Assembly: GCF_058153355.1 (NCBI RefSeq)
Contig: NZ_CM177019.1
DNA: 64,000 nt
Direction: 5' to 3' (one strand)
Position 1 is the first letter of the stretch. Each line of letters opens with the position of its first letter. The notes under the pieces were generated by a model. It saw only the letters and a list, made by a program, of their open reading frames with translations. It ran no database searches and had not been told where the DNA came from. The position numbers were made by a program, and so were the translations under genes. Shown here in pieces: positions 3,861 through 36,892 of the stretch.

Positions 3861-4078
3861 GAAACCATCCTTCATTTCAGCGCGTGTATAAAACGCGCCC
3901 ACTGAACTGCACCGCCCAACATTGAGCGGGCAGCGTAAAAACCAATACAGAATTGATACCTGGATGATATCAAATATCCAGTCTTAAATTGTGGCCTTTA
4001 GCGGAAAAATGAAAACATATGCTACAGAATGGCGCTCATCACGCCATTCTTCGCGGTTAATTCAGTAATTTTTCAGAA

Positions 4079-10824: not shown

Positions 10825-10998
10825 ATCAGGCTCCGGAGAATTGGGGCCGTCCCCGGTGAAAAGAGGCGTTTGCAGGTCGTCCTGCAAAGCTGATGGTTGA
10901 ACGGGTATTTTGCCAGGTGGCAGGGGAATTTCAACTATTACCTTAGTGACTATCGCAAAAAAACAAACGGCACGACACAGCTGTCGTACCGTTATTGC

Positions 10999-11432: not shown

Positions 11433-11999
11433 TTACTTCACGCGAGAGACGTATTCACCAGAGCGGGTATCCACTTTGATGACTTCTCCGATCTGTACGA
11501 ACAGCGGAACTTTAACCACTGCACCAGTAGACAGGGTAGCCGGTTTGCCGCCAGTACCTGCGGTATCCCCTTTCAGGCCTGGATCGGTATCAACGATTTC
11601 CAGTTCAACAAAGTTCGGCGGAGTAACGGAGATCGGCTGACCATTCCACAGAGTTACGATACACTCTGCCTGATCCAGCAACCATTTGGCGTTGTCGCCA
11701 ATTGCTTTTGCATCAGCAGACAGTTGCTCGAAAGTTTCGTTGTTCATGAAGTGCCAGAACTCACCGTCGTTGTACAGGTAAGTCAGGTTCATATCGACAA
11801 CATCAGCGCCTTCAGCGGAATCAGTAGATTTGAAGGTTTTTTCTACGCGAGTACCGGTCAGCAGACGACGCAGTTTAACGCGAGCAAATGCCTGGCCTTT
11901 ACCCGGTTTTACGAATTCACTCGCTTCAACCGCGTAAGGTTCGCCGTCTAACATGATTTTAAGACCAGCACGAAAATCGTTGCTATAGTACGTTGCCAT
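11433..11999 (-). CDS. efp: Translation elongation factor P
   Basis: 188-aa [45 protein letters not shown]… including the modified-lysine loop KPGKGQA. Confidence 0.97.
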
Positions 12000-14222: not shown

Positions 14223-14576
14223 TCAATTCGGGCACTTATATACCTGGCCGATAATCTGGCTATCCGTCGGGACAAAACTGGACAACATTCCCTGCGACGG
14301 GCTGCTGATACCATAAATCACGTTACCACCCATTGCCGCTGCCTGGTTGCGCAGATCGTTTGCCGCACCACGCATAGAACCGCCTTCTTCACCGTGTTGC
14401 CCGGAAAGCCAGTTACTTTGCTTACCTGTCGCAGTACCAATCAGCTGGCACTCTGCGCCTGGCTGCTCGTCCACAATGCGTACACTCTGACCGGCAGCAC
14501 TCAATTCGTTGCTGGAGCTACAACCCGCCATCAGTAGCGCGGCACCGACAATCCCTGCTAAGTATTTTACGTGCAT
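14223..14576 (-). CDS. yjeI: Lipoprotein YjeI (117 aa)
   Basis: MHVKYLAGIVGAALLMAGCSSS… lipobox; ORF-track frame trimmed to this Met. Confidence 0.85.
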   Translation of the reverse strand: MHVKYLAGIVGAALLMAGCSSSNELSAAGQSVRIVDEQPGAECQLIGTATGKQSNWLSGQHGEEGGSMRGAANDLRNQAAAMGGNVIYGISSPSQGMLSSFVPTDSQIIGQVYKCPN

Positions 14577-14654
14577 GTTATTCCCCATAATCAATGAGCT
14601 GGACGCCACTCGCGTCGTCCGTGTCTGAATCTTATACTAGAAAGATGACTAAAA

Positions 14655-14690
14655 GAAAAACCCCCAGACATTTCTGCCCGGGGGTTTGTT
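14655..14690 (-). terminator. groESL rho-independent terminator
   Basis: Minus-strand read gives a CCCCC…GGGGG stem followed by TTTTTCTTTT just downstream of groL stop. Confidence 0.6.
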
Positions 14691-14713
14691 TATTTCTGCG
14701 AGTTGCAGGGCAA

Positions 14714-16372
<1,659 letters not shown>

Positions 16373-16403
16373 TTAAATTCGTATGTTCAGTGTCGTGCGC
16401 GGA

Positions 16404-16748
<345 letters not shown>

Positions 16749-16774
16749 TTACGTGGTTTCCCGGCTGGTGACCA

Positions 16775-16810
16775 GAGAAATGGGGGTGAGGCTTCGCCCC
16801 TTCAAGGGGG
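16775..16810 (-). promoter_or_regulatory. sigma-32 heat-shock promoter of groESL
   Basis: Minus-strand read: CCCCCTTGAA (-35) … 14 nt … CCCCATTTCT (-10), matching the sigma-32 consensus CTTGAA / CCCCATnT. Confidence 0.8.
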
Positions 16811-16972
16811 AAAATGAAAAAAAATTCTGATCAGCACAAAATCGGGTGAAAACACTGATTCACCTCACATTTCATCGCAATTTATTCATCGCCGTCATAA
16901 GCGAATCTGATTGTGCTACCATCGAAAATCTACGCAGTTGCCCAAGATTTGGGCGCAATCGGACATCAACCC

Positions 16973-18229
16973 ATGAGTGGACTCAAACAAGAACTGGGGC
17001 TGGCCCAGGGCATCGGCCTGCTATCGACGTCATTATTAGGCACTGGCGTGTTTGCCGTTCCTGCGTTAGCTGCACTGGTAGCAGGCAATACCAGCCTGTG
17101 GGCATGGCCCGTTTTGATTATCTTAGTGTTCCCGATTGCAATTGTGTTTGCGATTCTGGGTCGCCACTATCCCAGTGCAGGCGGCGTCGCACACTTCGTC
17201 GGTATGGCGTTTGGTTCGCGGCTTGAGCGAGTCACCGGCTGGTTATTTTTATCGGTCATTCCCGTGGGTTTACCTGCCGCGCTACAAATTGCTGCCGGGT
17301 TCGGCCAGGCGATGTTTGGCTGGCATAGCTGGCAACTGTTGTTATCAGAACTCGGTACGCTGGCGTTGGTGTGGTATATCGGTACTCGCGGTGCCAGTTC
17401 CAGTGCTAATCTACAAACGGTCATTGCCGGGCTTATCGTCGCGCTGATTGTCGCTATCTGGTGGGCGGGCGATATCAAACCTGCGAATATCCCCTTCCCT
17501 GCACCTGGTAATATCGAACTTACCGGGTTATTTGCTGCGTTATCAGTGATGTTCTGGTGCTTTGTCGGTCTGGAAGCATTTGCCCATCTTGCCTCGGAAT
17601 TTAAAAATCCAGAGCGTGATTTTCCTCGCGCGTTGATGATTGGTCTGCTGCTGGCAGGATTAGTCTACTGGGGCTGTACGGTAGTCGTCTTACACTTCGA
17701 CGCCTACGGTGAAAAAATGGCAGCGGCAGCATCGCTTCCAAAAATTGTGGTGCAGCTGTTCGGTGTAGGGGCGTTATGGATTGCCTGCGTGATTGGCTAT
17801 CTGGCCTGCTTTGCCAGTCTCAACATTTATATACAGAGCTTCGCCCGCCTGGTCTGGTCGCAGGCGCAACATAATCCTGACCACTACCTGGCACGCCTCT
17901 CTTCTCGTCATATCCCGAATAATGCCCTCAATGCGGTGCTCGGCTGCTGCGTGGTGAGCACGTTGGTGATTCATGCTTTAGAGATCAATCTGGACGCACT
18001 TATCATCTATGCCAATGGCATCTTTATTATGATTTATCTGTTATGCATGCTGGCAGGTTGTAAATTATTGCAAGGACGTTATCGACTACTGGCGGTGGTT
18101 GGCGGGCTGTTATGCGTTCTGTTACTAGCAATGGTCGGCTGGAAAAGTCTCTATGCGCTGATCATGCTGGCGGGGTTATGGCTGTTTCTGCCAAAACGAA
18201 AAACGCCGGAAAATGGCATAACCACATAA
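16973..18229 (+). CDS. yjeH: APC-family amino acid (L-methionine) exporter YjeH (418 aa)
   Basis: MSGLKQELGLAQGIGLLSTSLLGTGVFAVPALAA…; ORF-track frame trimmed to this Met. Confidence 0.9.
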   Translation: MSGLKQELGLAQGIGLLSTSLLGTGVFAVPALAALVAGNTSLWAWPVLIILVFPIAIVFAILGRHYPSAGGVAHFVGMAFGSRLERVTGWLFLSVIPVGLPAALQIAAGFGQAMFGWHSWQLLLSELGTLALVWYIGTRGASSSANLQTVIAGLIVALIVAIWWAGDIKPANIPFPAPGNIELTGLFAALSVMFWCFVGLEAFAHLASEFKNPERDFPRALMIGLLLAGLVYWGCTVVVLHFDAYGEKMAAAASLPKIVVQLFGVGALWIACVIGYLACFASLNIYIQSFARLVWSQAQHNPDHYLARLSSRHIPNNALNAVLGCCVVSTLVIHALEINLDALIIYANGIFIMIYLLCMLAGCKLLQGRYRLLAVVGGLLCVLLLAMVGWKSLYALIMLAGLWLFLPKRKTPENGITT

Positions 18230-18244
18230 TCCGGCGTTTCGGCA

Positions 18245-18721
18245 TTAATCCTGGCGATCGTCTTTATGATCAAGGCGGTCGCGCTCATCATCCTTTCGCT
18301 GGTACTCACCATCAAAAGTATTACCGCCACCGGTCCCGGCGCTAAAACCGCCGCCTGGCATGCGAGAAAAGCGCAAATGCGGCATCAACTTCACTGTCAG
18401 ATGCTTTTGCACCGGCGGTAATAAAAGCAGAAGACCGAGGAAGTCGGTGAAAAAGCCCGGTAATAAAAGCAGCAAACCGGCAATGATCAGCGAAACACTT
18501 TTAATCATCTCCGCCGCTGGGTTTTCACCTGCCGCCATTTTTTGCTGCATCAGCACGAAATTCTTAAAGCCCTGGTTACGTACCAGTGACATACCAATAA
18601 CTGACGTGAATATAACCAGCACGAGGGTCAGCAATACCCCCAATACATGGGCAACCTGAATAAAGATTGAAATCTCAATATAGACATAAAGGAAAATGGC
18701 AATAAAAGGTAACCAGCGCAA
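18245..18721 (-). CDS. fxsA: Inner membrane protein FxsA (suppressor of F exclusion of phage T7)
   Basis: 158-aa ORF MRWLPFIAIFLYVYIEISIFIQVAHVLGVLL… with acidic C-terminal tail. Confidence 0.93.
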   Translation of the reverse strand: MRWLPFIAIFLYVYIEISIFIQVAHVLGVLLTLVLVIFTSVIGMSLVRNQGFKNFVLMQQKMAAGENPAAEMIKSVSLIIAGLLLLLPGFFTDFLGLLLLLPPVQKHLTVKLMPHLRFSRMPGGGFSAGTGGGNTFDGEYQRKDDERDRLDHKDDRQD

Positions 18722-19057
18722 AGGTTTCTCCTGTAATAGCAGCCGGTTAAACCCGGCTACCTGAATGGGTTGCGAATCGCGTTCAGCTTATATTGTGGTC
18801 ATTAGCAAAATTTCAAGATGTTTGCGCAACTATTTTTGGTAGTAATCCCAAAGCGGTGATCTATTTCACAAATTAATAATTAAGGGGTAAAAACCGACAC
18901 TTAAAGTGATCCAGATTACGGTAGAAATCCTCAAGCAGCATATGATCTCGGGTATTCGGTCGATGCAGGGGATAATCGTCGGTCGAAAAACATTCGAAAC
19001 CACATATATTCTGTGTGTTTAAAGCAAATCATTGGCAGCTTGAAAAAGAAGGTTCAC

Positions 19058-20494
19058 ATGTCAAACAACATTCGTATCGAAGAAGATCTGTTGGGTACCA
19101 GGGAAGTTCCAGCTGATGCCTACTATGGTGTTCACACTCTGAGAGCGATTGAAAACTTCTATATCAGCAACAACAAAATCAGTGATATTCCTGAATTTGT
19201 TCGCGGTATGGTAATGGTTAAAAAAGCCGCAGCTATGGCAAACAAAGAGCTGCAAACCATTCCTAAAAGTGTAGCGAATGCCATCATTGCCGCATGTGAT
19301 GAAGTCCTGAACAACGGAAAATGCATGGATCAGTTCCCGGTAGACGTCTACCAGGGCGGCGCAGGTACTTCCGTAAACATGAACACCAACGAAGTGCTGG
19401 CCAATATCGGTCTGGAACTGATGGGTCACCAGAAAGGTGAATATCAGTACCTGAACCCGAACGACCATGTTAACAAATGTCAGTCCACTAACGACGCCTA
19501 CCCGACCGGTTTCCGTATCGCAGTTTACTCTTCCCTGATTAAGCTGGTAGATGCGATTAACCAACTGCGTGAAGGCTTTGAACGTAAAGCTGTCGAATTC
19601 CAGGACATCCTGAAAATGGGTCGTACCCAGCTGCAGGACGCAGTACCGATGACCCTCGGTCAGGAATTCCGCGCTTTCAGCATCCTGCTGAAAGAAGAAG
19701 TGAAAAACATCCAACGTACCGCTGAACTGCTGCTGGAAGTTAACCTTGGCGCAACAGCAATCGGTACTGGTCTGAACACGCCGAAAGAGTACTCTCCGCT
19801 GGCAGTGAAAAAACTGGCTGAAGTCACTGGCTTCCCATGCGTACCGGCTGAAGACCTGATCGAAGCGACCTCTGACTGCGGCGCTTATGTTATGGTTCAC
19901 GGCGCGCTGAAACGCCTGGCTGTGAAGATGTCCAAAATCTGTAACGACCTGCGCTTGCTCTCTTCTGGTCCACGTGCCGGCCTGAACGAGATCAACCTGC
20001 CGGAACTGCAGGCGGGCTCTTCCATCATGCCAGCTAAAGTAAACCCGGTTGTTCCGGAAGTGGTTAACCAGGTATGCTTCAAAGTCATCGGTAACGACAC
20101 CACTGTTACCATGGCAGCAGAAGCAGGTCAGCTGCAGTTGAACGTTATGGAGCCGGTCATTGGCCAGGCTATGTTCGAATCCGTTCACATTCTGACCAAC
20201 GCTTGCTACAACCTGCTGGAAAAATGCATTAACGGCATCACTGCTAACAAAGAAGTGTGCGAAGGTTACGTTTACAACTCTATCGGTATCGTTACTTACT
20301 TGAACCCGTTCATCGGTCACCACAACGGTGACATCGTGGGTAAAATCTGTGCCGAAGCCGGTAAGAGTGTACGTGAAGTCGTTCTGGAACGCGGTCTGTT
20401 GACTGAAGCGGAACTTGACGATATTTTCTCCGTACAGAATCTGATGCACCCGGCTTACAAAGCAAAACGCTATACTGATGAAAGCGAACAGTAA
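19058..20494 (+). CDS. aspA: Aspartate ammonia-lyase AspA (478 aa)
   Basis: [30 protein letters not shown]…; fumarase/aspartase signature [10 protein letters not shown]. Confidence 0.98.
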
Positions 20495-20520
20495 TCGTAC
20501 AGGGTAGTACAAATAAAGAA

Positions 20521-20547
20521 GGCACGTCAGATGACGTGCCTTTTTTC
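20521..20547 (+). terminator. aspA rho-independent terminator
   Basis: GGCACGTCA-GA-TGACGTGCC hairpin followed by TTTTTTCTT. Confidence 0.85.
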
Positions 20548-20611
20548 TTGTGAGCAGTAACTTAAAAATAACAATCTAATATCAACTTGTTAAAAAACAA
20601 GGAAGGCTAAT

Positions 20612-21913
20612 ATGCTAGTTGTAGAACTCATCATAGTTTTGCTGGCGATCTTCTTGGGCGCCAGATTGGGGGGAATAGGTATTGGTTTTGCAGGCGGATT
20701 GGGGGTGCTGGTTCTTGCCGCTATTGGCGTTAAACCCGGTAACATCCCGTTCGATGTCATTTCCATTATCATGGCGGTTATCGCCGCTATTTCTGCCATG
20801 CAGGTTGCTGGCGGTCTGGACTATCTGGTTCATCAGACAGAAAAGCTGCTGCGCCGTAACCCGAAATACATCACGATCCTCGCACCGATCGTGACCTATT
20901 TCCTGACTATCTTTGCTGGTACTGGCAACATCTCTCTGGCGACACTGCCAGTTATCGCTGAAGTTGCGAAGGAACAAGGCGTTAAACCTTGCCGTCCGCT
21001 GTCTACTGCAGTGGTATCCGCGCAGATTGCGATCACCGCATCGCCAATCTCAGCAGCAGTGGTTTACATGTCTTCCGTGATGGAAGGTCATGGCATCAGC
21101 TACCTCCATCTGCTCTCCGTGGTCATCCCGTCCACCCTGCTGGCGGTTCTGGTGATGTCCTTCCTGGTCACTATGCTGTTCAACTCCAAACTCTCTGACG
21201 ATCCGATTTATCGCAAGCGTCTGGAAGAGGGCCTGGTTGAACTGCGCGGTGAAAAGCAGATTGAAATCAAATCCGGTGCAAAAACGTCCGTCTGGCTGTT
21301 CCTGCTGGGCGTAGTTGGCGTTGTTATCTATGCAATCATCAACAGCCCAAGCATGGGTCTGGTTGAAAAACCGCTGATGAACACCACCAACGCAATCCTG
21401 ATCATCATGCTCAGCGTTGCAACTCTGACCACCGTTATCTGTAAAGTCGATACCGACAACATCCTCAACTCCAGCACCTTCAAAGCAGGTATGAGCGCCT
21501 GTATTTGTATCCTGGGTGTTGCGTGGCTGGGCGATACTTTCGTTTCCAACAACATCGACTGGATCAAAGATACCGCTGGTGAAGTGATTCAGGGTCATCC
21601 GTGGCTGCTGGCCGTCATCTTCTTCTTTGCTTCTGCTCTGCTGTACTCTCAGGCTGCAACCGCAAAAGCACTGATGCCGATGGCTCTGGCACTGAACGTT
21701 TCTCCGCTGACCGCTGTTGCTTCTTTCGCTGCGGTGTCTGGTCTGTTCATTCTGCCGACCTACCCGACGCTGGTTGCTGCGGTACAGATGGATGACACGG
21801 GTACTACCCGTATCGGTAAATTCGTCTTCAACCATCCGTTCTTCATCCCGGGTACTCTGGGTGTTGCCCTGGCCGTTTGCTTCGGCTTCGTGCTGGGTAG
21901 CTTCATGCTGTAA
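20612..21913 (+). CDS. dcuA: Anaerobic C4-dicarboxylate transporter DcuA
   Basis: 433-aa ORF MLVVELIIVLLAIFLGARLGGIGIGFAGGLGV…; paralogous to dcuB at 41132. Confidence 0.97.
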   Translation: MLVVELIIVLLAIFLGARLGGIGIGFAGGLGVLVLAAIGVKPGNIPFDVISIIMAVIAAISAMQVAGGLDYLVHQTEKLLRRNPKYITILAPIVTYFLTIFAGTGNISLATLPVIAEVAKEQGVKPCRPLSTAVVSAQIAITASPISAAVVYMSSVMEGHGISYLHLLSVVIPSTLLAVLVMSFLVTMLFNSKLSDDPIYRKRLEEGLVELRGEKQIEIKSGAKTSVWLFLLGVVGVVIYAIINSPSMGLVEKPLMNTTNAILIIMLSVATLTTVICKVDTDNILNSSTFKAGMSACICILGVAWLGDTFVSNNIDWIKDTAGEVIQGHPWLLAVIFFFASALLYSQAATAKALMPMALALNVSPLTAVASFAAVSGLFILPTYPTLVAAVQMDDTGTTRIGKFVFNHPFFIPGTLGVALAVCFGFVLGSFML

Positions 21914-21922
21914 TGACCAATC

Positions 21923-21948
21923 GCGGGGCTTCAGGCCCCGCTTTCTTT
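21923..21948 (+). terminator. dcuA rho-independent terminator
   Basis: GCGGGGC-TTCAG-GCCCCGC hairpin followed by TTTCTTT. Confidence 0.8.
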
Positions 21949-22027
21949 CCCGCCGACTAACATCCTTCCCCCGTCCGTTGTATAGTGACCTCTCTCTTGC
22001 GGTTCCATCTGTTCTTGCGAGGTGTTT

Positions 22028-22366
22028 ATGCTTGATGAAAAAAGTTCGAATACCGTGTCTGTCGTGGTGCTATGTACCGCACCGGATGAAGCGACAGCCC
22101 AGGATTTAGCCGCCAAAGTGCTGGCGGAAAAACTGGCAGCCTGCGCGACCTTGATCCCCGGCGCGACCTCTCTCTATTACTGGGAAGGTAAGCTGGAGCA
22201 AGAATACGAAGTACAGATGATTTTAAAAACTACCGTATCTCACCAGCAGGCACTGCTGGAATGCCTGAAGTCTCATCATCCATATCAAACCCCGGAACTT
22301 CTGGTTTTACCTGTTACACACGGAGACACAGATTACCTCTCATGGCTCAACGCATCTTTACGCTGA
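22028..22366 (+). CDS. cutA: Divalent-cation tolerance protein CutA (112 aa)
   Basis: [54 protein letters not shown]…. Confidence 0.95.
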
Positions 22367-24039
22367 TCCTGCTACTTTGCAGCACTTCCGTTTTTGCCGG
22401 ATTATTCGACGCGCCGGGACGTTCGCAATTTGTCCCCGCGGATCAAGCCTTTGCTTTTGATTTTCAGCAAAACCAACATGACCTGAATCTGACCTGGCAG
22501 ATCAAAGACGGTTACTACCTCTACCGTAAACAGGTCCGTATTACGCCGGAACACGCGAAAATTGCCGACGTGCAGCTGCCGCAAGGCGTCTGGCATGAAG
22601 ATGAGTTTTACGGCAAAAGCGAGATTTACCGCGATCGGCTGACACTTCCCATAACCATCAACCAGGCGAGTGCAGGAGCGACGTTAACGGTGACCTACCA
22701 GGGCTGCGCTGATGCCGGTTTCTGTTATCCGCCAGAAACCAAAACCGTTCCGTTAAGCGAAGTGGTCGCCAACAACGCAGCGTCACAGCTTGTGTCTGTT
22801 CCGCAGCAAGAGCAGCCCACCGCGCAATTGCCCTTTTCCGCGCTCTGGGCGTTGTTGATCGGTATTGGTATCGCCTTTACGCCATGCGTGCTGCCAATGT
22901 ACCCACTGATTTCTGGCATCGTGCTGGGCGGTAAACAGCGGCTCTCCACTGCCAGAGCATTGTTGCTGACCTTTATTTATGTGCAGGGGATGGCGCTGAC
23001 TTACACGGCACTGGGTCTGGTGGTTGCCGCCGCAGGGTTACAGTTCCAGGCGGCGCTACAGCACCCATACGTGCTCATTGGCCTCGCTATCGTCTTTACC
23101 TTGCTGGCGATGTCAATGTTTGGCTTGTTTACCCTGCAACTCCCCTCTTCGCTGCAAACGCGCCTCACGCTGATGAGCAATCGCCAACAGGGCGGCTCAC
23201 CTGGCGGTGTGTTTGTTATGGGGGCGATTGCCGGACTGATCTGTTCACCATGCACCACCGCACCGCTTAGCGCGATTCTGCTGTATATCGCCCAAAGCGG
23301 GAACATGTGGCTGGGCGGCGGCACGCTTTATCTCTATGCGTTGGGCATGGGCCTGCCGCTGATGCTAATTACCGTCTTTGGTAACCGCTTGCTGCCGAAA
23401 AGCGGTCCGTGGATGGAACAAGTCAAAACCGCGTTTGGTTTTGTGATCCTCGCACTGCCGGTCTTCCTGCTGGAGCGAGTGATTGGTGATATATGGGGAT
23501 TACGCTTGTGGTCGGCGCTTGGCGTCGCGTTCTTTGGCTGGGCCTTTATCACCAGCTTACAGGCCAAACGTAGCTGGATGCGCATTGTACAAATTATTCT
23601 GCTGGCGGCGGCGCTGGTTAGCGTGCGCCCATTACAGGATTGGGCATTTGGTGCAACTAACATTGCGCAAACTCAGGCGCATCTCAACTTTACGCAAATC
23701 AAAACGGTGGATGAATTAAATCAGGCACTCGCCGAAGCCAAAGGTAAACCAGTGATGTTAGATCTCTATGCTGACTGGTGCGTCGCCTGTAAAGAGTTCG
23801 AGAAATACACCTTCAGCGACCCTCAGGTGCAAAAAGCGTTAGCAGACACGGTCTTACTTCAAGCCAACGTCACTGCCAACGACGCCCAAGATGTGGCGCT
23901 GTTAAAACATCTCAATGTCCTTGGCCTACCGACAATTCTCTTTTTTGACGGACAAGGCCAGGAGCATCCGCAAGCGCGTGTCACGGGCTTTATGGATGCT
24001 GAAACCTTCAGCGCACATTTGCGCGATCGCCAACCGTGA
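22342..24039 (+). CDS. dsbD: Thiol:disulfide interchange protein DsbD (565 aa)
   Basis: [20 protein letters not shown] signal peptide; C-terminal thioredoxin-like CVACK motif; overlaps cutA 3' end. Confidence 0.96.
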
Positions 24040-24051
24040 ACGACACTTGCA

Positions 24052-24651
24052 GTGGGAAAGACGGAGGAAAATAGCGTGCAACGTGAAGATGTACTGGGAG
24101 AAGCCCTGAAATTATTAGAATTACAAGGGATTGCCAACACCACGCTGGAGATGGTTGCTGAACGTGTGGATTATCCACTGGACGAGCTACGCCGCTTCTG
24201 GCCAGACAAAGAGGCAATCCTCTATGATGCGCTGCGCTATCTTAGCCAACAGATAGATGTCTGGCGTCGTCAGCTGATGCTGGACGAAACGCAAACCGCC
24301 GAACAAAAGCTGCTGGCACGTTATCAGGCGTTATCGGAGTGCGTTAAAAACAACCGCTATCCGGGCTGTCTGTTTATCGCTGCCTGTACGTTTTATCCCG
24401 ATCCTGGCCACCCTATTCATCAACTGGCCGATCAGCAAAAAAGCGCGGCCTACGATTTCACCCACGAACTGTTAACCACGCTGGAAGTTGACGATCCGGC
24501 GATGGTAGCAAAGCAGATGGAACTGGTGCTGGAAGGCTGTTTAAGCCGAATGCTGGTGAATCGTAGCCACGCGGATGTCGACACCGCACATCGGCTGGCA
24601 GAAGATATCCTGCGCTTCGCTCGCTGCCGCCAAGGTGGCGCACTGACCTGA
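24052..24651 (+). CDS. yjdC: TetR-family transcriptional regulator YjdC
   Basis: N-terminal HTH-like region …[46 protein letters not shown]…; the true start may be the GTG at 24076. Confidence 0.85.
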
Positions 24652-24757: not shown

Positions 24758-24833
24758 GCCCGGATAGCTCAGTCGGTAGAGCAGGGGATTGAAAATCCCC
24801 GTGTCCTTGGTTCGATTCCGAGTCCGGGCACCA
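24758..24833 (+). tRNA. pheU: tRNA-Phe (anticodon GAA)
   Basis: GCCCGGATAGCTCAGTCGGTAGAGCAGGGGATTGAAAATCCCCGTGTCCTTGGTTCGATTCCGAGTCCGGGCACCA; cloverleaf with GAA anticodon and encoded CCA. Confidence 0.98.
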
Positions 24834-24843
24834 AATTCATATA

Positions 24844-24870
24844 AACGGACCTCCACGGAGGTCCGTTTTT
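24844..24870 (+). terminator. pheU rho-independent terminator
   Basis: AACGGACCTCC-ACG-GAGGTCCGTT hairpin followed by TTTTCGTTT. Confidence 0.85.
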
Positions 24871-25464
24871 CGTTTCAGGACGCCATGTGATTTAAGCGTT
24901 CTGCCTTCAAATCATTTCTAACAATCTCAACCAAATTTTCCCACATCGCCAGCATGTTGCGGGTATACCCCAGCTCTGGGAAATTTATCCCTAAGCTATG
25001 AATGACTCTCACGAAATGTCGTGCGGCTGCGTGATGCAGTTGAAAATCAAATGATGTCATCAAGAGCTTAACGGTATCGTTGCCGATGACATATATAAAG
25101 CACAACCTCGGGCAGAACGCCGACTGATGAGATTTTCTGAATGAGAACAAAGAGAAATGTATCAGTCCGCTTGCTCATGCAAAGACTAACAATCCATTAA
25201 AATAGTAAGCGCTCCGGGCAATTTTCCATGGATTATTTTCTGCACATTTTTCTTTGGCAAAGATGATGAATAATGATGGTAAGGTAAATTACTTCTGGTG
25301 CTCATTAAACTCCTTTCGTAATACTATGTAATCAAGAAGTTTATGGCGGGTAAAAATAACGTCTTACATTCACCAATAATATGTAAATAAACCCATCTAT
25401 AGATGGTAAAAATAGGTCATGGCAATTATCATTGAACCATTCCCTTTTCGAATGAGTTTCTATT

Positions 25465-27003
25465 ATGCAACAACCTGTAGTTCGCGTTGGCGAATGGCTT
25501 GTTACTCCGTCCATAAACCAAATTAGCCGCAATGGGCGTCAACTTACCCTTGAGCCGAGATTAATCGATCTTCTGGTTTTCTTTGCTCAACACAGTGGCG
25601 AAGTACTTAGCAGGGATGAACTTATCGATAATGTCTGGAAGAGAAGTATTGTCACCAATCACGTTGTGACGCAGAGTATCTCAGAACTACGTAAGTCATT
25701 AAAAGATAATGATGAAGATAGTCCTGTCTATATCGCTACTGTACCAAAGCGCGGCTATAAATTAATGGTGCCGGTTATCTGGTACAGCGAAGAAGAGGGA
25801 GAGGAAATAATGCTATCTTCGCCTCCCCCTATACCAGAGGCGGTTCCTGACACAGATTCTCCCTCCCAAAGTCTTAACATTCAAAACACCGCAACACCAC
25901 CTGAACAATCCCCAGTTAAAAGCAAACGATTCACTACCTTTTGGGTATGGTTTTTTTTCCTGTTGTCGTTAGGTATCTGTGTAGCACTGGTAGCGTTTTC
26001 AAGTCTTGATACACGTCTTCCTATGAGCAAATCGCGTATTTTGCTCAATCCACGCGATATTGACATTAATATGGTAAATAAAAGTTGTAACAGCTGGAGT
26101 TCCCCGTATCAGCTCTCTTACGCGATAGGCGTGGGTGATTTGGTGGCGACATCACTTAACACCTTCTCCACCTTTATGGTGCATGACAAAATCAACTACA
26201 ACATTGATGAACCGAGCAGTTCCGGTAAAACATTATCTATTGCGTTTGTTAATCAGCGCCAATACCGTGCTCAACAATGCTTTATGTCGGTAAAATTGGT
26301 AGACAATGCAGATGGTTCAACCATGCTGGATAAACGTTATGTCATCACTAACGGTAATCAGCTGGCGATTCAAAATGATTTACTGGAGAGTTTATCAAAA
26401 GCGTTAAACCAACCGTGGCCACAACGAATGCAGGAGATGCTCCAGCAAATTTTGCCTCATCGTGGTGCGTTATTAACTAATTTTTATCAGGCACATGATT
26501 ATTTACTGCATGGCGATGATAAATCATTGAACCGTGCCAGTGAATTACTAGGTGAGATTGTTCAATCATCCCCCGAATTTACCTACGCGAGAGCAGAAAA
26601 AGCATTAGTTGATATCGTGCGCCATTCTCAACATCCTTTAGATGAAAAACAATTAGCAGCACTGAATACAGAAATAGATAACATTGTTACACTGCCGGAA
26701 TTGAACAACCTGTCCATTATATATCAAATAAAAGCGGTCAGTGCTCTGGTAAAAGGTAAAACAGATGAGTCTTACCAGGCGATAAATACTGGCATTGATC
26801 TTGAAATGTCCTGGCTAAATTATGTGTTGCTTGGCAAGGTTTATGAAATGAAGGGGATGAACCGGGAAGCAGCTGATGCATATCTCACCGCCTTTAATTT
26901 ACGCCCAGGGGCAAACACCCTTTACTGGATTGAAAATGGTATATTCCAGACTTCTGTTCCTTATGTTGTACCTTATCTCGACAAATTTCTCGCCTCAGAA
27001 TAA
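25465..27003 (+). CDS. cadC: Membrane-integrated pH-responsive transcriptional activator CadC (ToxR-like)
   Basis: 512-aa ORF MQQPVVRVGEWLVTPSINQISRNGRQLTLEPRLIDLLVFF… winged-helix OmpR-like N-domain, single TM, periplasmic sensor. Confidence 0.97.
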   Translation: MQQPVVRVGEWLVTPSINQISRNGRQLTLEPRLIDLLVFFAQHSGEVLSRDELIDNVWKRSIVTNHVVTQSISELRKSLKDNDEDSPVYIATVPKRGYKLMVPVIWYSEEEGEEIMLSSPPPIPEAVPDTDSPSQSLNIQNTATPPEQSPVKSKRFTTFWVWFFFLLSLGICVALVAFSSLDTRLPMSKSRILLNPRDIDINMVNKSCNSWSSPYQLSYAIGVGDLVATSLNTFSTFMVHDKINYNIDEPSSSGKTLSIAFVNQRQYRAQQCFMSVKLVDNADGSTMLDKRYVITNGNQLAIQNDLLESLSKALNQPWPQRMQEMLQQILPHRGALLTNFYQAHDYLLHGDDKSLNRASELLGEIVQSSPEFTYARAEKALVDIVRHSQHPLDEKQLAALNTEIDNIVTLPELNNLSIIYQIKAVSALVKGKTDESYQAINTGIDLEMSWLNYVLLGKVYEMKGMNREAADAYLTAFNLRPGANTLYWIENGIFQTSVPYVVPYLDKFLASE

Positions 27004-27367: not shown

Positions 27368-28702
27368 ATGAGTTCTGCCAAGAAGATCGGGCTATTTGCC
27401 TGTACCGGTGTTGTTGCCGGTAATATGATGGGGAGCGGCATTGCATTATTGCCTGCGAACCTTGCAAGTATCGGTGGTATTGCTATCTGGGGTTGGATTA
27501 TCTCTATTATTGGTGCAATGTCGTTGGCTTATGTATATGCCCGACTGGCAACAAAAAACCCGCAACAAGGTGGCCCAATTGCTTATGCCGGAGAAATTTC
27601 TCCTGCATTTGGTTTTCAGACAGGTGTTCTTTATTACCATGCTAACTGGATTGGTAACCTGGCGATTGGTATTACCGCTGTATCTTATCTTTCCACCTTC
27701 TTCCCTGTATTAAATGATCCTGTTCCGGCGGGTATCGCTTGTATTGCTATCGTCTGGGTATTTACCTTTGTAAATATGCTCGGCGGTACCTGGGTAAGCC
27801 GTTTAACCACTATTGGTCTGGTGCTGGTTCTTATTCCTGTAGTTATGACTGCTATTGTTGGCTGGCATTGGTTTGATGCTGCAACTTATGCTGCTAACTG
27901 GAATACCGCAGGTACTACTGATGGTCATGCGATCATTAAAAGTATTCTGCTCTGCCTGTGGGCCTTCGTGGGTGTTGAATCCGCAGCGGTAAGTACTGGT
28001 ATGGTTAAAAACCCGAAACGTACCGTTCCGCTGGCAACCATGCTGGGTACTGGTTTAGCAGGTATTGTTTACATCGCTGCGACTCAGGTGCTTTCCGGTA
28101 TGTATCCGTCTTCTGTAATGGCAGGCTCCGGTGCTCCGTTTGCAATCAGTGCTTCTACTATCCTGGGTAACTGGGCTGCGCCGATGGTTTCTGCATTCAC
28201 CGCTTTTGCGTGCCTGACTTCTCTGGGCTCCTGGATGATGCTGGTAGGTCAGGCAGGTGTGCGTGCCGCTAACGACGGTAACTTCCCGAAAGTTTATGGT
28301 GAAGTCGACAGCAACGGTATTCCGAAAAAAGGTCTGCTGCTGGCTGCAGTGAAAATGACTGCCCTGATGATCCTCATCACTCTGATGAACTCTGCCGGTG
28401 GTAAAGCATCTGACCTGTTCGGTGAACTGACCGGTATCGCAGTACTGCTGACTATGCTGCCGTACTTCTACTCTTGCGTTGACCTGATTCGTTTTGAAGG
28501 CGTTAACATCCGCAACTTTGTCAGCCTGATCTGCTCTGTACTGGGTTGCGTGTTCTGCTTCATCGCGCTAATGGGCGCAAGCTCCTTCGAGCTGGCAGGT
28601 ACCTTCATCGTCAGCCTGATTATCCTGATGTTCTACGCTCGCAAAATGCACGAGCGCCAGAGCCACTCAATGGATAACCACACAGCGTCTAACGCACATT
28701 AA
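27368..28702 (+). CDS. cadB: Lysine:cadaverine antiporter CadB
   Basis: 444-aa APC-family [37 protein letters not shown]…. Confidence 0.97.
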   Translation: MSSAKKIGLFACTGVVAGNMMGSGIALLPANLASIGGIAIWGWIISIIGAMSLAYVYARLATKNPQQGGPIAYAGEISPAFGFQTGVLYYHANWIGNLAIGITAVSYLSTFFPVLNDPVPAGIACIAIVWVFTFVNMLGGTWVSRLTTIGLVLVLIPVVMTAIVGWHWFDAATYAANWNTAGTTDGHAIIKSILLCLWAFVGVESAAVSTGMVKNPKRTVPLATMLGTGLAGIVYIAATQVLSGMYPSSVMAGSGAPFAISASTILGNWAAPMVSAFTAFACLTSLGSWMMLVGQAGVRAANDGNFPKVYGEVDSNGIPKKGLLLAAVKMTALMILITLMNSAGGKASDLFGELTGIAVLLTMLPYFYSCVDLIRFEGVNIRNFVSLICSVLGCVFCFIALMGASSFELAGTFIVSLIILMFYARKMHERQSHSMDNHTASNAH

Positions 28703-28781: not shown

Positions 28782-30929
28782 ATGAACGTTATTGCAATAT
28801 TGAATCACATGGGGGTTTATTTTAAAGAAGAACCCATCCGTGAACTTCATCGCGCGCTTGAACGTCTGAACTTCCAGATTGTTTACCCGAATGACCGTGA
28901 CGACTTATTAAAACTGATCGAAAACAATGCGCGTCTGTGCGGTGTTATTTTTGACTGGGATAAATATAATCTCGAGCTGTGCGAAGAAATTAGCAAAATG
29001 AACGAGAACCTGCCGTTGTACGCGTTCGCTAATACGTATTCCACTCTCGATGTCAGCCTGAATGACCTGCGTTTACAGATTAGCTTCTTTGAATATGCGC
29101 TGGGTGCTGCTGATGATATTGCTAACAAGATCAAGCAGACCACTGACGAATATATCAACACTATTCTGCCTCCGCTGACCAAAGCACTGTTTAAATATGT
29201 TCGTGAAGGTAAATATACTTTCTGTACTCCTGGTCACATGGGCGGTACTGCATTCCAGAAAAGCCCGGTAGGTAGCCTGTTCTATGATTTCTTTGGTCCG
29301 AACACCATGAAATCTGATATTTCCATTTCAGTATCTGAATTGGGTTCTCTGCTGGATCACAGCGGTCCGCACAAAGAAGCAGAACAGTACATCGCTCGCG
29401 TATTTAACGCAGATCGCAGCTACATGGTGACCAACGGTACTTCCACTGCGAACAAAATTGTTGGTATGTACTCTGCTCCGGCAGGCAGCACCATTCTGAT
29501 TGACCGTAACTGCCACAAATCGCTGACCCACCTGATGATGATGAGCGATGTTACGCCAATCTATTTCCGCCCGACCCGTAACGCTTACGGTATTCTTGGT
29601 GGTATCCCACAGAGTGAATTCCAGCACGCTACCATTGCTAAGCGCGTAAAAGAAACACCAAACGCGACCTGGCCGGTACATGCCGTAATTACTAACTCTA
29701 CCTATGATGGCCTGCTGTACAACACCGACTTCATCAAGAAAACACTGGATGTAAAATCCATCCACTTTGACTCCGCGTGGGTGCCTTACACCAACTTCTC
29801 ACCGATTTACGAAGGTAAATGCGGTATGAGCGGTGGCCGTGTAGAAGGGAAAGTGATTTACGAAACCCAGTCTACTCACAAACTGCTGGCGGCGTTCTCT
29901 CAGGCTTCCATGATCCACGTTAAAGGTGATGTAAACGAAGAAACCTTTAACGAAGCCTACATGATGCACACCACCACTTCTCCGCACTACGGTATCGTGG
30001 CGTCCACTGAAACCGCTGCGGCGATGATGAAAGGTAATGCTGGTAAGCGTCTGATCAACGGTTCCATTGAACGTGCGATCAAGTTCCGTAAAGAGATCAA
30101 ACGCCTGAGAACGGAATCTGATGGCTGGTTCTTTGATGTATGGCAGCCGGATCATATCGATACCACTGAATGCTGGCCGCTGCGTTCTGACAGCTCCTGG
30201 CACGGCTTCAAGAACATCGACAATGAGCACATGTATCTTGACCCGATTAAAGTCACCCTGCTGACCCCGGGGATGGAAAAAGACGGCACCATGAGCGACT
30301 TTGGTATTCCGGCCAGCATCGTGGCGAAATACCTCGACGAACATGGCATCGTTGTTGAGAAAACCGGCCCGTATAACCTGCTGTTCCTGTTCAGCATCGG
30401 TATTGATAAGACCAAAGCATTGAGCCTGCTGCGTGCTCTGACTGACTTCAAACGTGCGTTCGACCTGAACCTGCGTGTGAAAAACATGCTGCCGTCTCTG
30501 TATCGTGAAGATCCTGAATTCTATGAAGATATGCGTATTCAGGAACTGGCTCAGAATATCCACAAACTGATTGTTCACCACAATCTGCCGGATCTGATGT
30601 ATCGCGCATTTGAAGTTCTGCCGACAATGGTTATGACTCCGTATGCGGCGTTCCAGAAAGAGCTGCACGGTATGACCGAAGAAGTTTACCTCGACGAAAT
30701 GGTAGGTCGTATTAACGCCAATATGATCCTTCCGTATCCGCCGGGAGTTCCTCTGGTAATGCCGGGTGAAATGATCACCGAAGAAAGCCGTCCGGTGCTG
30801 GAGTTCCTGCAGATGCTGTGTGAAATCGGCGCTCACTATCCGGGCTTTGAAACCGATATTCACGGTGCATACCGTCAGGCTGATGGCCGCTATACCGTTA
30901 AGGTATTGAAAGAAGAAAGCAAAAAATAA
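28782..30929 (+). CDS. cadA: Inducible lysine decarboxylase CadA (715 aa)
   Basis: MNVIAILNHMGVYFKEEPIREL…; PLP-lysine motif STHKLL; ORF-track frame trimmed to this Met. Confidence 0.98.
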   Translation: MNVIAILNHMGVYFKEEPIRELHRALERLNFQIVYPNDRDDLLKLIENNARLCGVIFDWDKYNLELCEEISKMNENLPLYAFANTYSTLDVSLNDLRLQISFFEYALGAADDIANKIKQTTDEYINTILPPLTKALFKYVREGKYTFCTPGHMGGTAFQKSPVGSLFYDFFGPNTMKSDISISVSELGSLLDHSGPHKEAEQYIARVFNADRSYMVTNGTSTANKIVGMYSAPAGSTILIDRNCHKSLTHLMMMSDVTPIYFRPTRNAYGILGGIPQSEFQHATIAKRVKETPNATWPVHAVITNSTYDGLLYNTDFIKKTLDVKSIHFDSAWVPYTNFSPIYEGKCGMSGGRVEGKVIYETQSTHKLLAAFSQASMIHVKGDVNEETFNEAYMMHTTTSPHYGIVASTETAAAMMKGNAGKRLINGSIERAIKFRKEIKRLRTESDGWFFDVWQPDHIDTTECWPLRSDSSWHGFKNIDNEHMYLDPIKVTLLTPGMEKDGTMSDFGIPASIVAKYLDEHGIVVEKTGPYNLLFLFSIGIDKTKALSLLRALTDFKRAFDLNLRVKNMLPSLYREDPEFYEDMRIQELAQNIHKLIVHHNLPDLMYRAFEVLPTMVMTPYAAFQKELHGMTEEVYLDEMVGRINANMILPYPPGVPLVMPGEMITEESRPVLEFLQMLCEIGAHYPGFETDIHGAYRQADGRYTVKVLKEESKK

Positions 30930-30987: not shown

Positions 30988-32445
30988 ATGAAAACACCCT
31001 CACAGCCGCGCGCGATATACTATATCGTGGCGATCCAAATCTGGGAGTACTTCAGTTTTTACGGCATGCGTGCCTTACTCATTCTCTATCTCACCCATCA
31101 GCTTGGTTTTGATGATAACCATGCCATCAGCCTGTTCAGCGCATATGCATCTCTGGTTTACGTTACCCCTATTCTCGGCGGCTGGCTTGCCGACCGCCTG
31201 CTCGGCAATCGTACTGCGGTAATTGCCGGCGCGCTGTTAATGACCCTTGGCCATGTAGTGCTGGGCATTGATACAAATTCAACCTTTAGCCTGTATCTGG
31301 CGCTGGCAATCATTATTTGTGGCTACGGTTTATTCAAATCAAACATCAGCTGTTTGCTTGGCGAGCTCTACGACGAGAACGATCATCGACGTGATGGCGG
31401 TTTTTCGCTGCTGTATGCTGCGGGCAATATCGGTTCTATCGCAGCCCCCATCGCCTGCGGTCTGGCTGCTCAGTGGTATGGATGGCATGTTGGCTTTGCC
31501 CTTGCGGGTGGTGGCATGTTTATCGGTTTGTTGATTTTCTTAAGCGGTCATCGTCATTTCCAGTCAACGCGTAGTATGGATAAAAAAGCGCTCACTCGCG
31601 TGAAATTTGCCTTACCGGTATGGAGCTGGTTAGTGGTGATGCTCTGTTTAGCCCCAGTATTTTTTACCCTGCTGCTGGAGAACGACTGGTCCGGATATTT
31701 GCTGGCGATCGTTTGCCTTATTGCTGCACAAATCATTGCCCGCATGATGATCAAATTCCCCGAACACCGCCGTGCTCTTTGGCAAATTGTATTGTTGATG
31801 TTTGTCGGGACGTTGTTCTGGGTACTGGCACAACAGGGTGGCAGTACCATCAGCTTGTTTATCGATCGCTTTGTGAATCGTCAGGCATTCAATATTGAAG
31901 TACCTACTGCACTATTCCAGTCAGTGAACGCAATTGCGGTGATGCTCGCTGGGGTTGTTCTGGCCTGGCTGGCGTCGCCAGAAAGCCGCGGCAATTCAGC
32001 ATTGCGCGTCTGGCTGAAGTTTGCCTTTGGCTTACTGCTGATGGCTTGTGGCTTTATGTTGCTGGCATTTGATGCCCGACATGCAGCGGCTGGCGGTCAA
32101 GCGTCAATGGGCGTGATGATATCCGGGCTGGCGCTAATGGGCTTTGCTGAACTCTTTATTGACCCGGTGGCGATTGCGCAAATCACGCGTCTGAAAATGT
32201 CTGGCGTATTAACCGGTATTTATATGCTGGCAACAGGCGCGGTCGCCAACTGGCTGGCAGGCGTCGTGGCACAGCAGACGACAGAGTCGCAAATTAGCGG
32301 TATGGCAATTGCAGCTTACCAGCGATTCTTTTCTCAGATGGGAGAGTGGACGTTGGCTTGTGTCGCGATCATCGTGGTATTGGCCTTTGCTGTCCGTTTT
32401 CTGTTTAGCACGCCGACGAATATGATACAGGAGAGCAACGATTAA
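30988..32445 (+). CDS. dtpC: Dipeptide/tripeptide:H+ symporter DtpC (YjdL), POT family
   Basis: 485-aa [39 protein letters not shown]… (POT-family signature). Confidence 0.95.
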
Positions 32446-34423: not shown

Positions 34424-34498
34424 GTAAGCGTCTTATCAGGACCGTCTGGCAAATTCCCGATGCTTTGGACAAAGTATCCACCACTAAATTAATAGTGG

Positions 34499-34927
34499 GT
34501 GATAAAAATGTCAGATATACAAAAAAATGCCTCTCCGGGAAGGCCTAAAGGGTGCCTGAATTATCCTCCTGAATTCAAACAACGACTCATAGAAGCATCA
34601 TTCCAGCCAGGTGTTTCAATTTCCAGACTGGCCCTGGACAATGGTATTAATGCCAATCTGTTGTTCAAATGGCGTCAGAAATGGCGGCAGGGGAAGATAA
34701 AATTGCCATCATCAGAATCAGGCAGAGAATCTCAGTTAATTCCTGTCACTATTGATGCCCAACTCCCAACTGCTCCGGCTAATGAGCCACTGACCGCAAG
34801 ACCGTCAGTAACACCGGAAATACACAGCATCTCCTGTGAGATTACGTTCAGAAACGGCACCCTTCGGTTGAACGGGGCAGTGAATGAAAATCTGCTGTCC
34901 TTGCTTATACAGGAGCTGAGACGGTGA
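34499..34927 (+). CDS. tnpA: IS66-family accessory protein TnpA (OrfA)
   Basis: 142-aa ORF MIKMSDIQKNASPGRPKGCLNYPPEFKQRLIEASFQPGVSISRLALDNGINANLLFKWRQKWRQG… (HTH-like); the true start may be the Met at 34508. Confidence 0.85.
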   Translation: MIKMSDIQKNASPGRPKGCLNYPPEFKQRLIEASFQPGVSISRLALDNGINANLLFKWRQKWRQGKIKLPSSESGRESQLIPVTIDAQLPTAPANEPLTARPSVTPEIHSISCEITFRNGTLRLNGAVNENLLSLLIQELRR

Positions 34928-35271
34928 TATCTCTCCCTGCAGGTTCGCGTATCTGGCTGGTTGCAGGTATCACCGATATGCGAAATGGCTTTAACGGCCT
35001 GGCCTCAAAAGTTCAGAACGTCCTGAAGGATGACCCGTTCTCCGGGCATCTGTTCATCTTCCGCGGACGCCGGGGTGACCAGATAAAAGTGTTGTGGGCT
35101 GACAGTGACGGACTGTGCCTCTTCACCAGACGCCTGGAGCGGGGCCGCTTCGTCTGGCCGGTCACCCGTGACGGCAAGGTGCACCTTACTCCGGCCCAGT
35201 TATCCATGCTTCTTGAGGGCATCGACTGGAAACACCCGAAACGAACGGAACGCGCTGGCATCCGCATATAA
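34924..35271 (+). CDS. tnpB: IS66-family TnpB (OrfB)
   Basis: 115-aa ORF MISLPAGSRIWLVAGITDMRNGFNGLASKVQNVLKDDPFSGHLFIFRGRRGDQIKVLWADSDGLCLF…; GTG start overlapping tnpA stop by 4 bp. Confidence 0.85.
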   Translation: MISLPAGSRIWLVAGITDMRNGFNGLASKVQNVLKDDPFSGHLFIFRGRRGDQIKVLWADSDGLCLFTRRLERGRFVWPVTRDGKVHLTPAQLSMLLEGIDWKHPKRTERAGIRI

Positions 35272-35290
35272 CCCGTTGTAAAGTGAGGAT

Positions 35291-36862
35291 ATGGACACCT
35301 CACTTGCTCATGAGAATGCCCGCCTGCGGGCACTGTTGCAGACGCAACAGGACACCATCCGCCAGATGGCGAAATACAACCGCCTGCTCTCACAGCGGGT
35401 GGCGGCTTATGCTTCCGAAATCAACCGGCTGAAGGCGCTGGTTGCAAAACTGCAGCGCATGCAGTTCGGTAAAAGCTCAGAAAAACTTCGTGCAAAAACC
35501 GAACGGCAGATACAGGAAGCACAGGAGCGAATCAGCGCTCTTCAGGAAGAAATGGCGGAAACGCTGGGTGAGCAATATGACCCGGTACTGCCATCTCCCC
35601 TGCGCCAGTCTTCAGCCCGTAAACCGTTACCTGCCTCACTTCCCCGTGAAACCCGGGTCATCCGTCCGGAAGAGGAATGCTGCCCGGCCTGTGGTGGCGA
35701 ACTCAGTTCTCTGGGATGTGATGTGTCAGAGCAACTGGAGCTTATCAGCAGCGCCTTTAAGGTTATCGAAACACAACGTCCGAAACTGGCCTGTTGCCGG
35801 TGCGACCATATCGTGCAGGCTCCGGTGCCTTCAAAACCCATTGCACGCAGTTATGCCGGAGCGGGGCTTCTGGCCCATGTTGTCGCTGGAAAATATGCAG
35901 ACCATCTGCCGTTATACCGCCAGTCAGAAATATACCGTCGTCAGGGCGTGGAGCTGAGCCGTGCCACACTGGGGCGCTGGACAGGTGCTGTTGCTGAACT
36001 GCTGGAACCGCTGTATGACATCCTGCGCCAGTATGTGCTGATGCCCGGTAAAGTCCATGCCGATGATATCCCCGTTCCGGTCCAGGAGCCGGGCAGCGGT
36101 AAAACAAGGACTGCCCGGCTGTGGGTCTACGTTCGTGATGACCGTAACGCCGGTTCGGAAATGCCTCCGGCGGTCTGGTTCGCGTACAGCCCGGACCGGA
36201 AAGGTATCCATCCACAGAATCATCTGGCCGGTTACAGCGGAGTGCTTCAGGCCGATGCTTACGGTGGTTACCGGGCGTTGTACGAATCCGGCAGAATAAC
36301 GGAAGCCGCATGTATGGCTCATGCCCGGAGAAAAATCCACGATGTGCATGCAAGAGTGCCCACCGACATCACCACGGAAGCCCTGCAGCGTATCGGTGAA
36401 CTGTATGCCATCGAGGCAGAGGTCCGGGGCTGTTCAGCAGAACAGCGTCTGGCGGCAAGAAAAGCCAGAGCCGCGCCACTGATGCAGTCACTGTATGACT
36501 GGATACAGCAACAGATGAAAACACTGTCGCGTCACTCGGACACGGCAAAAGCGTTCGCATACCTGCTGAAACAGTGGGATGCACTGAACGTGTACTGCAG
36601 TAATGGCTGGGTGGAAATCGACAACAACATCGCAGAGAACGCCTTACGGGGAGTGGCCGTAGGCCGGAAAAACTGGCTCTTCGCGGGTTCTGACAGCGGT
36701 GGTGAACATGCTGCGGTGTTGTACTCGCTGATCGGCACATGCCGTCTGAACAATGTGGAGCCAGAAAAGTGGCTGCGTTACGTCATTGAACATATCCAGG
36801 ACTGGCCGGCAAACCGGGTACGCGATCTGTTGCCCTGGAAAGTTGATCTGAGCTCTCAGTAA
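35291..36862 (+). CDS. tnpC: IS66-family DDE transposase TnpC
   Basis: 523-aa ORF with N-terminal coiled-coil/leucine-zipper region, Cys pairs CPACGG…CCRCDH and a DDE-type core. Confidence 0.88.
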
Positions 36863-36892
36863 ATATCAATACGGTTCTGGCGAGCCGCTTAC

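Follow-up and report, generated by a model that had tools for sequence, protein, structure and literature searches.

The stretch of DNA analysed here (the window, 64,000 nucleotides) belongs to the chromosome of E. coli, in the 93-94 min region, and is about 97.6% identical to K-12 by alignment. When searched against 5,426 complete E. coli genomes, a 2.2-kb stretch around cadC matches 5,292, at up to 99.5%, and the gene calls of the window agree gene for gene with the RefSeq annotation of the nearest (99.5%) E. coli genome. The features that matter for the present discussion are as follows.

4079-5056, minus strand: epmA (yjeA/poxA), EF-P-(R)-beta-lysine ligase (NF006828, 604 bits against a cut-off of 264)
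11433-11999, minus strand: efp, elongation factor P, an intact ORF (TIGR00038, 253.6 bits against a cut-off of 185.8)
12041-13069, plus strand: epmB (yjeK), the lysine 2,3-aminomutase that makes (R)-beta-lysine (TIGR03821, 533 bits against 369)
14223-24651, no strand assigned: conserved block yjeI-groL-groS-yjeH-fxsA-aspA-dcuA-cutA-dsbD-dicD, between epmB/efp and pheU
24758-24833, plus strand: tRNA-Phe (pheU), by ARAGORN and the Rfam tRNA family; the synteny breakpoint
25465-27003, plus strand: cadC, a 512-aa ORF encoding the ToxR-like, membrane-integrated pH sensor that activates cadBA
25822-25836, plus strand: PPPIP stall motif, codons 120-124 of cadC (CCT CCC CCT ATA CCA), preceded by Ser119 (TCG)
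25897-25902, plus strand: second linker diproline, TPPE, codons 145-146 of cadC
27368-28702, plus strand: cadB, cadaverine/lysine antiporter (NCBIfam, 916 bits), in the operon targeted by CadC
28782-30929, plus strand: cadA, lysine decarboxylase (NCBIfam, 1627 bits), in the same target operon
30988-32445, plus strand: dtpC, from the annotation of the nearest genome
32682-34199, plus strand: lysU, from the annotation of the nearest genome (LysRS, 1203 bits)

The product of cadC matches the NCBIfam equivalog NF007540 at 754 bits (cut-off 400) over residues 1-509, i.e., at full length, and the Pfam families PF00486 and PF18500 are precomputed on near-identical (99% identity) cluster representatives of the protein. 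As many as 507 of the 512 residues are identical to K-12 CadC, and none of the five substitutions (A129D and H135Q in the linker, I276V, T325M and K328Q) falls within the motif. The products of cadB, cadA and lysU likewise score above the NCBIfam cut-offs. In the window, cadC lies directly upstream of cadB-cadA, an order that is kept in most of the cadC loci examined.

The proline run of CadC and its translation factor

An earlier note on this DNA had pointed to the string SSPPPIPEAVP at codons 118-128 of cadC, which the translation bears out. The nucleotides given there, 25822-25836, fit PPPIP only; the full string occupies 25816-25848, and the span 25819-25839 translates to SPPPIPE. The three prolines of codons 120-122 are in frame with the cadC ORF and form a run of at least three consecutive prolines. 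Codon for codon, TCG CCT CCC CCT ATA CCA is the K-12 allele, so the description of the motif as one that stalls ribosomes in the absence of EF-P corresponds to a published arrest motif. The TPPE diproline, some way down the same linker, was absent from the earlier note. On the minus strand, no ORF of at least 80 aa overlaps the motif site at 25.8 kb. The Rfam gathering matches in the window are confined to tRNA-Phe, a guanidine-II riboswitch, STnc630 and naRNA4, none of which places a structured RNA over the PPPIP motif.

The response of this protein to EF-P is well documented. As PMC5936718 summarises Ude et al. (2013), the polyproline stretch makes the translation of CadC stall, and EF-P in its beta-lysylated form relieves this. 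Two motifs of consecutive prolines are known in the unstructured linker of CadC, with EF-P alleviating the stalling (PMC5936718, PMC5811046). The motif is read from CCU-CCC-CCU after a TCG serine codon, and this choice of codons sets the CadC copy number; the acid response loses its regulation when the prolines are silently recoded as 3 x CCG (PMC8129111). In PMC5936718, which again draws on Ude et al. (2013), the CadC-PPPIP/AAAIS variant is described as independent of EF-P and as rising from 3-5 to 11-14 copies per cell, about three-fold. As CadC is then out of balance with LysP, this variant activates PcadBA aberrantly (PMC5936718, after Ude et al. 2013). Thus, the dependence of CadC copy number, and with it of cadBA, on modified EF-P is published for the K-12 allele (PMC6544042, PMC5936718). 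A CadC reporter experiment in an efp mutant, which had been suggested as a check, also exists already: the expression of PcadBA::lacZ is low in an efp deletion strain rather than unaffected, and the fusion serves as a standard reporter of EF-P activity (PMC6544042). Since 2013, the CadC polyproline with its need for beta-lysylated EF-P has served as a standard reporter system. That CadC depends on EF-P was published by Ude et al. (2013) and in later work, and nothing found here contradicts the known mechanism.

The three genes placed in the window by the earlier note, efp at 11433-11999, epmB at 12041-13069 and epmA at 4079-5056, are intact, correctly delimited and above the NCBIfam cut-offs. 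EF-P is identical to the K-12 protein at 188 of 188 residues, with Lys34 present in the KPGKGQA loop (beta3-beta4). EpmA is likewise identical to its K-12 counterpart, and EpmB carries 9 substitutions. The epmB gene is divergent from the adjacent efp, and epmA is separated from efp by 6.4 kb and by nine unrelated genes (frdABCD, ampC, blc, gdx and ecnAB). It is known that most PPP proteins are less abundant in strains deleted for efp, yjeA or yjeK but not in a yfcM deletion, and that EpmC is dispensable for EF-P activity (PMC4176338).

The set had been described as the entire EF-P rescue machinery, and this is overstated, since EpmC and EfpL lie outside the window. A tblastn search of the window with K-12 EpmC gives no match at E < 1, and neither the EF-P paralogue EfpL nor any second EF-P-like gene is found by tblastn. 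In K-12, cadC, efp and epmA are located at 4.36-4.38 Mb and epmC at 2.444 Mb, about 1.9 Mb from the efp region. EfpL also contributes to the Cad phenotype (PMC11611912).

Conservation of the motif and composition of the linker

The conservation of PPPIP across CadC orthologues, which the earlier note suggested checking, was computed directly. When 16 diverse CadC proteins are aligned, residues 110-160 contain not one column that is invariant or nearly so. K-12, the window, EC42405, two cryptic Escherichia clades and E. whittamii share PPPIP down to its codons, and the cluster representatives of CadC, which stand for more than 9,000 member sequences, all carry PPPIP with a few rare variants. 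A divergent E. coli CadC has CCC CCC CCT at the proline codons. At the motif site of E. albertii, CCA ACC TCT encodes PTS and the run is lost, while a CadC named by its source as E. fergusonii reads SPPALP at this site and TPPPQ at the second one. PPPIP is thus lineage-specific, being restricted to E. coli and the species nearest to it.

Runs that are not homologous to it are found in other linkers, such as SPPPPI in Salmonella, APPPA in K. pneumoniae and PPPP in Edwardsiella. Their frequency was compared with composition-preserving shuffles of each linker. The linkers of 47 of 69 species contain PP, against 49.6 expected. For PPP, 18 of the 69 were observed against 11.1 expected, with a nominal p of about 0.02 that is uncorrected and ignores relatedness; outside Escherichia, the figures are 13 and 10.0. 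In the proline-rich linker, PPP arises in 18% of such shuffles. Most of the polyproline in CadC linkers is thus accounted for by the composition of a disordered segment rich in proline.

It could also be imagined that linker polyproline is gained and lost repeatedly across Enterobacterales as a lineage-specific dial of CadC copy number, a proposal that is rather doubtful at present. The weak excess of PPP (18 vs 11.1) gives this reading no strong support. Even if it were true, the efp neighbourhood would still be irrelevant to it.

Gene neighbourhood, chance and the pheU breakpoint

The distances from the start of cadC are 13.5 kb for efp, 12.4 kb for epmB and 20.4 kb for epmA. The statement that client and machinery lie within about 20 kb of each other hence holds as a measurement (12.4-20.4 kb), but the significance that it implied does not, as the proximity is at chance level and limited to Escherichia. 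The chance level was estimated from the 96 E. coli proteins with PPP (PMC4176338) spread over 4.64 Mb, which makes one in about every 48 kb. At this density, 64 kb should contain 1.32 PPP genes, and the probability of at least one is 0.73. Exactly one, CadC, was observed among the 50 of 52 listed genes that were scanned (ecnA and ecnB, which encode tiny lipoproteins and have no material bearing on the count, were left out), so the proximity of cadC to the EF-P genes does not exceed chance. Similarly, PP is present in 17 of the 52 listed genes of the window, which fits the published estimate that about one in three E. coli proteins has a polyproline motif (PMC5811046). Between epmB and cadC lie a tRNA and no fewer than 12 unrelated genes, with some on either strand, and cadC shares neither a transcription unit nor a contiguous arrangement with the EF-P genes in the window.

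The neighbourhood of cadC was further followed in 76 cadC loci on one-genome-per-species contigs, which were searched with the window's proteins over flanks of 10 kb on each side. The order cadC-cadB-cadA-dtpC, often followed by lysU, is conserved across Enterobacterales in most of the 76 loci. The upstream series dicD-dsbD-cutA-dcuA-aspA-fxsA-yjeH, on the other hand, was seen among these loci in Escherichia only (E. coli, a cryptic clade and E. whittamii). Neither efp nor epmB lies within 10 kb of cadC in any of the 76. By family search, cadC is preceded by glyA-hmp in Salmonella, by a fimbrial usher and an lpxL-like gene in K. pneumoniae, by dnaE-accA in Serratia rubidaea, by putA-putP in Yersinia ruckeri and by purH in a Vibrio. 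In Edwardsiella anguillarum, two upstream ORFs match those of Serratia in size and are probably dnaE-accA as well. The cadCBA-dtpC module thus has at least five other contexts outside Escherichia, and a linkage of cadC with the EF-P genes is not conserved across independent lineages, being found in Escherichia only.

The view from the efp side is complementary. The block from yjeI to dicD keeps the same order in other Escherichia and in the contigs of Salmonella (L082) and Trabulsiella (L083) that contain the DicD orthologue. A tRNA-Phe gene follows dicD in Escherichia, Salmonella and Trabulsiella alike, while the DNA beyond its 3' end differs completely between the genera. Past this tRNA, Salmonella has an integrase-core fragment, an S6 autotransporter and K88-type fimbriae, and Trabulsiella has a phage ASH gene and a wza-wzb-wzc-like set; no cad genes follow dicD-tRNA-Phe in these two contigs. 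An efp gene at 10-20 kb from cadC, beyond the flanks covered, is argued against in other genera by the wholly different neighbours of cadC and by these cad-less blocks of Salmonella and Trabulsiella.

The synteny thus breaks exactly at pheU, 631 nt upstream of cadC. The K-12 annotation places a pseudogene, yjdQ, between pheU and cadC, which may derive from a P4-like integrase. The pheU-cadC spacer of the window (24834-25464) was looked at as a possible integrase remnant and is, by eye, too degraded to call. In E. albertii, a 612-aa ORF directly upstream of cadC resembles a P4-type primase by eye only and is a putative mobile-element gene. Together with the yjdQ pseudogene and the variable content, the breakpoint suggests that the cad module was inserted at pheU, or that a rearrangement there brought it to its present place. 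In Escherichia, the module would accordingly occupy the side of pheU that is variable and prone to islands, and its nearness to efp would follow from this position. Among Enterobacterales, the cadCBA-dtpC(-lysU) module is positionally mobile, with the E. coli copy on the variable side of pheU.

Interpretation and comparison with known systems

Very probably, the locus combines a known EF-P-dependent motif with an incidental linkage to efp that comes from the layout of the Escherichia chromosome. The sequence, the gene identities, the chance expectation and the non-conservation of motif and linkage were computed here, and the stalling, the EF-P dependence and the copy-number effect are taken from the literature. 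On this reading, PPPIP (codons 120-124) in the disordered cytoplasmic linker of CadC is the published EF-P-dependent site of ribosome arrest. EpmB makes the beta-lysyl group and EpmA attaches it at Lys34 of EF-P. The EF-P so modified relieves the pause only partly, so that CadC stays at a few molecules per cell; this low number balances CadC against the inhibitor LysP and shapes the induction of cadBA. As the cad module would lie on the variable side of the pheU integration site and adjoin the conserved groESL-epmB-efp neighbourhood, the proximity is best seen as a by-product.

A different explanation is that the co-location was selected, through co-regulation, a shared gene dosage near the origin or the passing on of client and rescue system together. 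It is true that cadC, efp, epmB and epmA all lie within 23 kb, that the clustering of efp, yjeK and yjeA in many bacteria is functionally meaningful (PMC2821294), and that the arrangement is kept in every sampled Escherichia lineage with enough flank (L006, L008 and L015) and is stable across E. coli, cryptic clades and E. whittamii, which would allow a benefit particular to this lineage. However, the unrelated genes on both strands between epmB and cadC argue against a shared transcript, the count of PPP genes is that expected by chance, and EpmC and EfpL are located elsewhere. None of the other genera examined shows the linkage; the cad module occurs there in its other contexts, and Salmonella and Trabulsiella keep the efp-side block but have no cad genes with it. 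Since EF-P acts in trans, as an abundant, soluble and diffusible protein (about 40,000 copies per cell, PMC11611912) with many other clients among the mRNAs, including those of the 96 PPP proteins (PMC4176338) and of the third of the proteome with polyproline motifs (PMC5811046), the proximity of the genes plays no part in the mechanism. The selected co-location is thus largely refuted by the synteny data and is hardly credible. The Escherichia-only linkage and the chance-level PPP count are the reasons for which the proximity is not read as functional.

Another possibility concerns the motif itself, namely that the PPP run merely reflects the composition of a disordered linker that is rich in proline and evolves fast, with the EF-P dependence being a side effect and not a tuned device. 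The lack of a conserved column in residues 110-160 of the 16 proteins agrees with this, as do the near-expected frequency of PP (47 vs 49.6 in 69 species), the small difference in PPP outside Escherichia (13 vs 10.0) and the PTS and PPA found at the motif site in E. albertii and in the source-named E. fergusonii. Furthermore, the serine at position -1 belongs to a class that weakens stalling (PMC4176338). Against it stands the physiology of E. coli, in which removal of the motif raises the copy number about three-fold and deregulates PcadBA (PMC5936718), and in which even the silent 3 x CCG recoding deregulates the response (PMC8129111). The PPP runs are also nominally above expectation overall (18 vs 11.1, uncorrected p of about 0.02). 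K-12, the window, the two cryptic clades and E. whittamii all retain the slow codons CCT CCC CCT, although CadC is 96-97% identical there, so that this retention is weak evidence. On balance, a mere by-product is distinctly unlikely, and the known EF-P-dependent motif with an incidental efp linkage is the preferred reading. The verdict is one of known biology in a coincidental neighbourhood. Its useful outcome is a negative one, in that the cluster of client plus machinery should not be taken as functional.

The locus can be set beside three known systems. The motif is a member of the known CadC/EF-P case and does not constitute a new kind of cluster. It agrees with the PPPIP of K-12 CadC (Ude et al. 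2013, Science 339:82; PMC4176338, PMC8129111, PMC5936718) in its position at aa 120-124, in its codons, in the preceding TCG and in the cadBA genes downstream. The differences are at the level of the strain only (5 in CadC and 9 in EpmB) and leave the motif untouched.

The second comparison is with the efp/yjeK/yjeA cluster of Bailly and de Crecy-Lagard (2010, PMC2821294). These genes cluster in many bacteria, an arrangement that was used in 2010 to predict the pathway, and E. coli was listed there as a case in which only efp and yjeK are clustered. The window resembles this cluster in the adjacent and divergent efp and epmB, in the nearby epmA and in Lys34; it is unlike it in that epmA is 6.4 kb and epmC about 1.9 Mb away. 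The cadC gene stands outside the conserved cluster in every non-Escherichia genus examined.

The third is with the variable island sites linked to tRNA genes, of the pheU/pheV type. The tRNA-Phe, the genus-variable DNA at its 3' side, yjdQ and the mobile-like ORF of E. albertii are all in keeping with such a site. In contrast to typical islands, cadCBA-dtpC-lysU stands in the window without an integrase or demonstrated flanking repeats, and its island status is, therefore, putative.

The tRNA-Phe site upstream of cadC

The gene for tRNA-Phe, pheU, marks a variable site (window 24758-25464). In K-12, the pseudogene yjdQ is annotated between pheU and cadC. In E. albertii, putative mobile-element genes are present upstream of cadC (L027, the E. 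albertii locus, 1-4263), and a 612-aa ORF in this upstream stretch was judged by eye to be P4-type primase-like. The same tRNA-Phe is found in Salmonella and Trabulsiella (L082 and L083, respectively, 10.6-20 kb), where it is then followed by unrelated island genes. On the other side of the tRNA, a 671-aa ORF is inserted between dicD and tRNA-Phe in a cryptic Escherichia clade (L006, 7179-9194), and it is absent from the window. The dicD-to-tRNA distance is enlarged in the same manner in E. whittamii (L008).

Insertions and absent genes in the window

Two insertion elements were observed, the first inserted 3' of lysU and the second between yjdM and yjdN, where it is adjoined by a small RNA match.

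Insertion elements and adjoining RNA (window positions)
34424-36892: IS66-family element, 3 ORFs
34499-34927: IS66-element ORF 1, HTH_Tnp_1
34924-35271: IS66-element ORF 2, TnpB_IS66
35291-36862: IS66-element ORF 3, DDE_Tnp_IS66
61871-61947: naRNA4 (CssrE), Rfam match
62141-63121, +: IS110-family transposase, 326 aa, DEDD_Tnp_IS110 and Transposase_20 domains

Comparison with both K-12 and the strain EC42405, 99.5% identical around cadC, showed that the IS66-family element after lysU is missing from each of them; the IS110-family transposase is not at the yjdM-yjdN position in EC42405. Some K-12 genes are also absent from the window. In K-12, melB lies between yjdF and melA; the window lacks melB, about 1.67 kb, and leaves no gap between yjdF (44319-44969) and the end of melA (44966-46321, - strand). 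This absence is common to the window and EC42405. The window likewise lacks yjeN (region 2260-2360), a gene that K-12 carries between yjeM and yjeO, and at this site the K-12 alignment is interrupted at 2301-2310, with about 270 bp missing.

The EF-P genes and gdx

EF-P and EpmA are the K-12 proteins without differences, and EpmB (12041-13069, + strand) differs from its K-12 counterpart at 9 positions, including a run at 212-215 (C212R, A214S, R215H). EF-P (efp, 11433-11999, - strand) itself contains TPPN at residues 127-129, and PPN is among the strong arrest triplets (PMC5811046). A riboswitch lies upstream of gdx/sugE, as is normal for this gene.

10842-10888, -: guanidine-II (mini-ykkC) riboswitch, 50.4 bits (gathering score 32)

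Possible origin and movement of the cad module

The CadC of E. coli shares 65-69% with the Klebsiella/Raoultella proteins (L009-L014 and L021) and 58% with that of Salmonella (L035), and a downstream lysU is common to the E. coli and Klebsiella/Raoultella loci only, not to Salmonella (L035). This pattern contradicts the species tree, and a horizontal movement of the cad module would be compatible with it. Family searches placed the cad operon of Serratia rubidaea directly 3' of dnaE-accA (L066, 4903-9363), and in Edwardsiella anguillarum (L069), ORFs of 1162 and 319 aa occupy the same place, resembling those of Serratia rubidaea by size only. The position after dnaE-accA is the one where E. 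coli carries its second lysine decarboxylase gene, ldcC, and this correspondence hints that the locus for lysine decarboxylase may have had an earlier site here.
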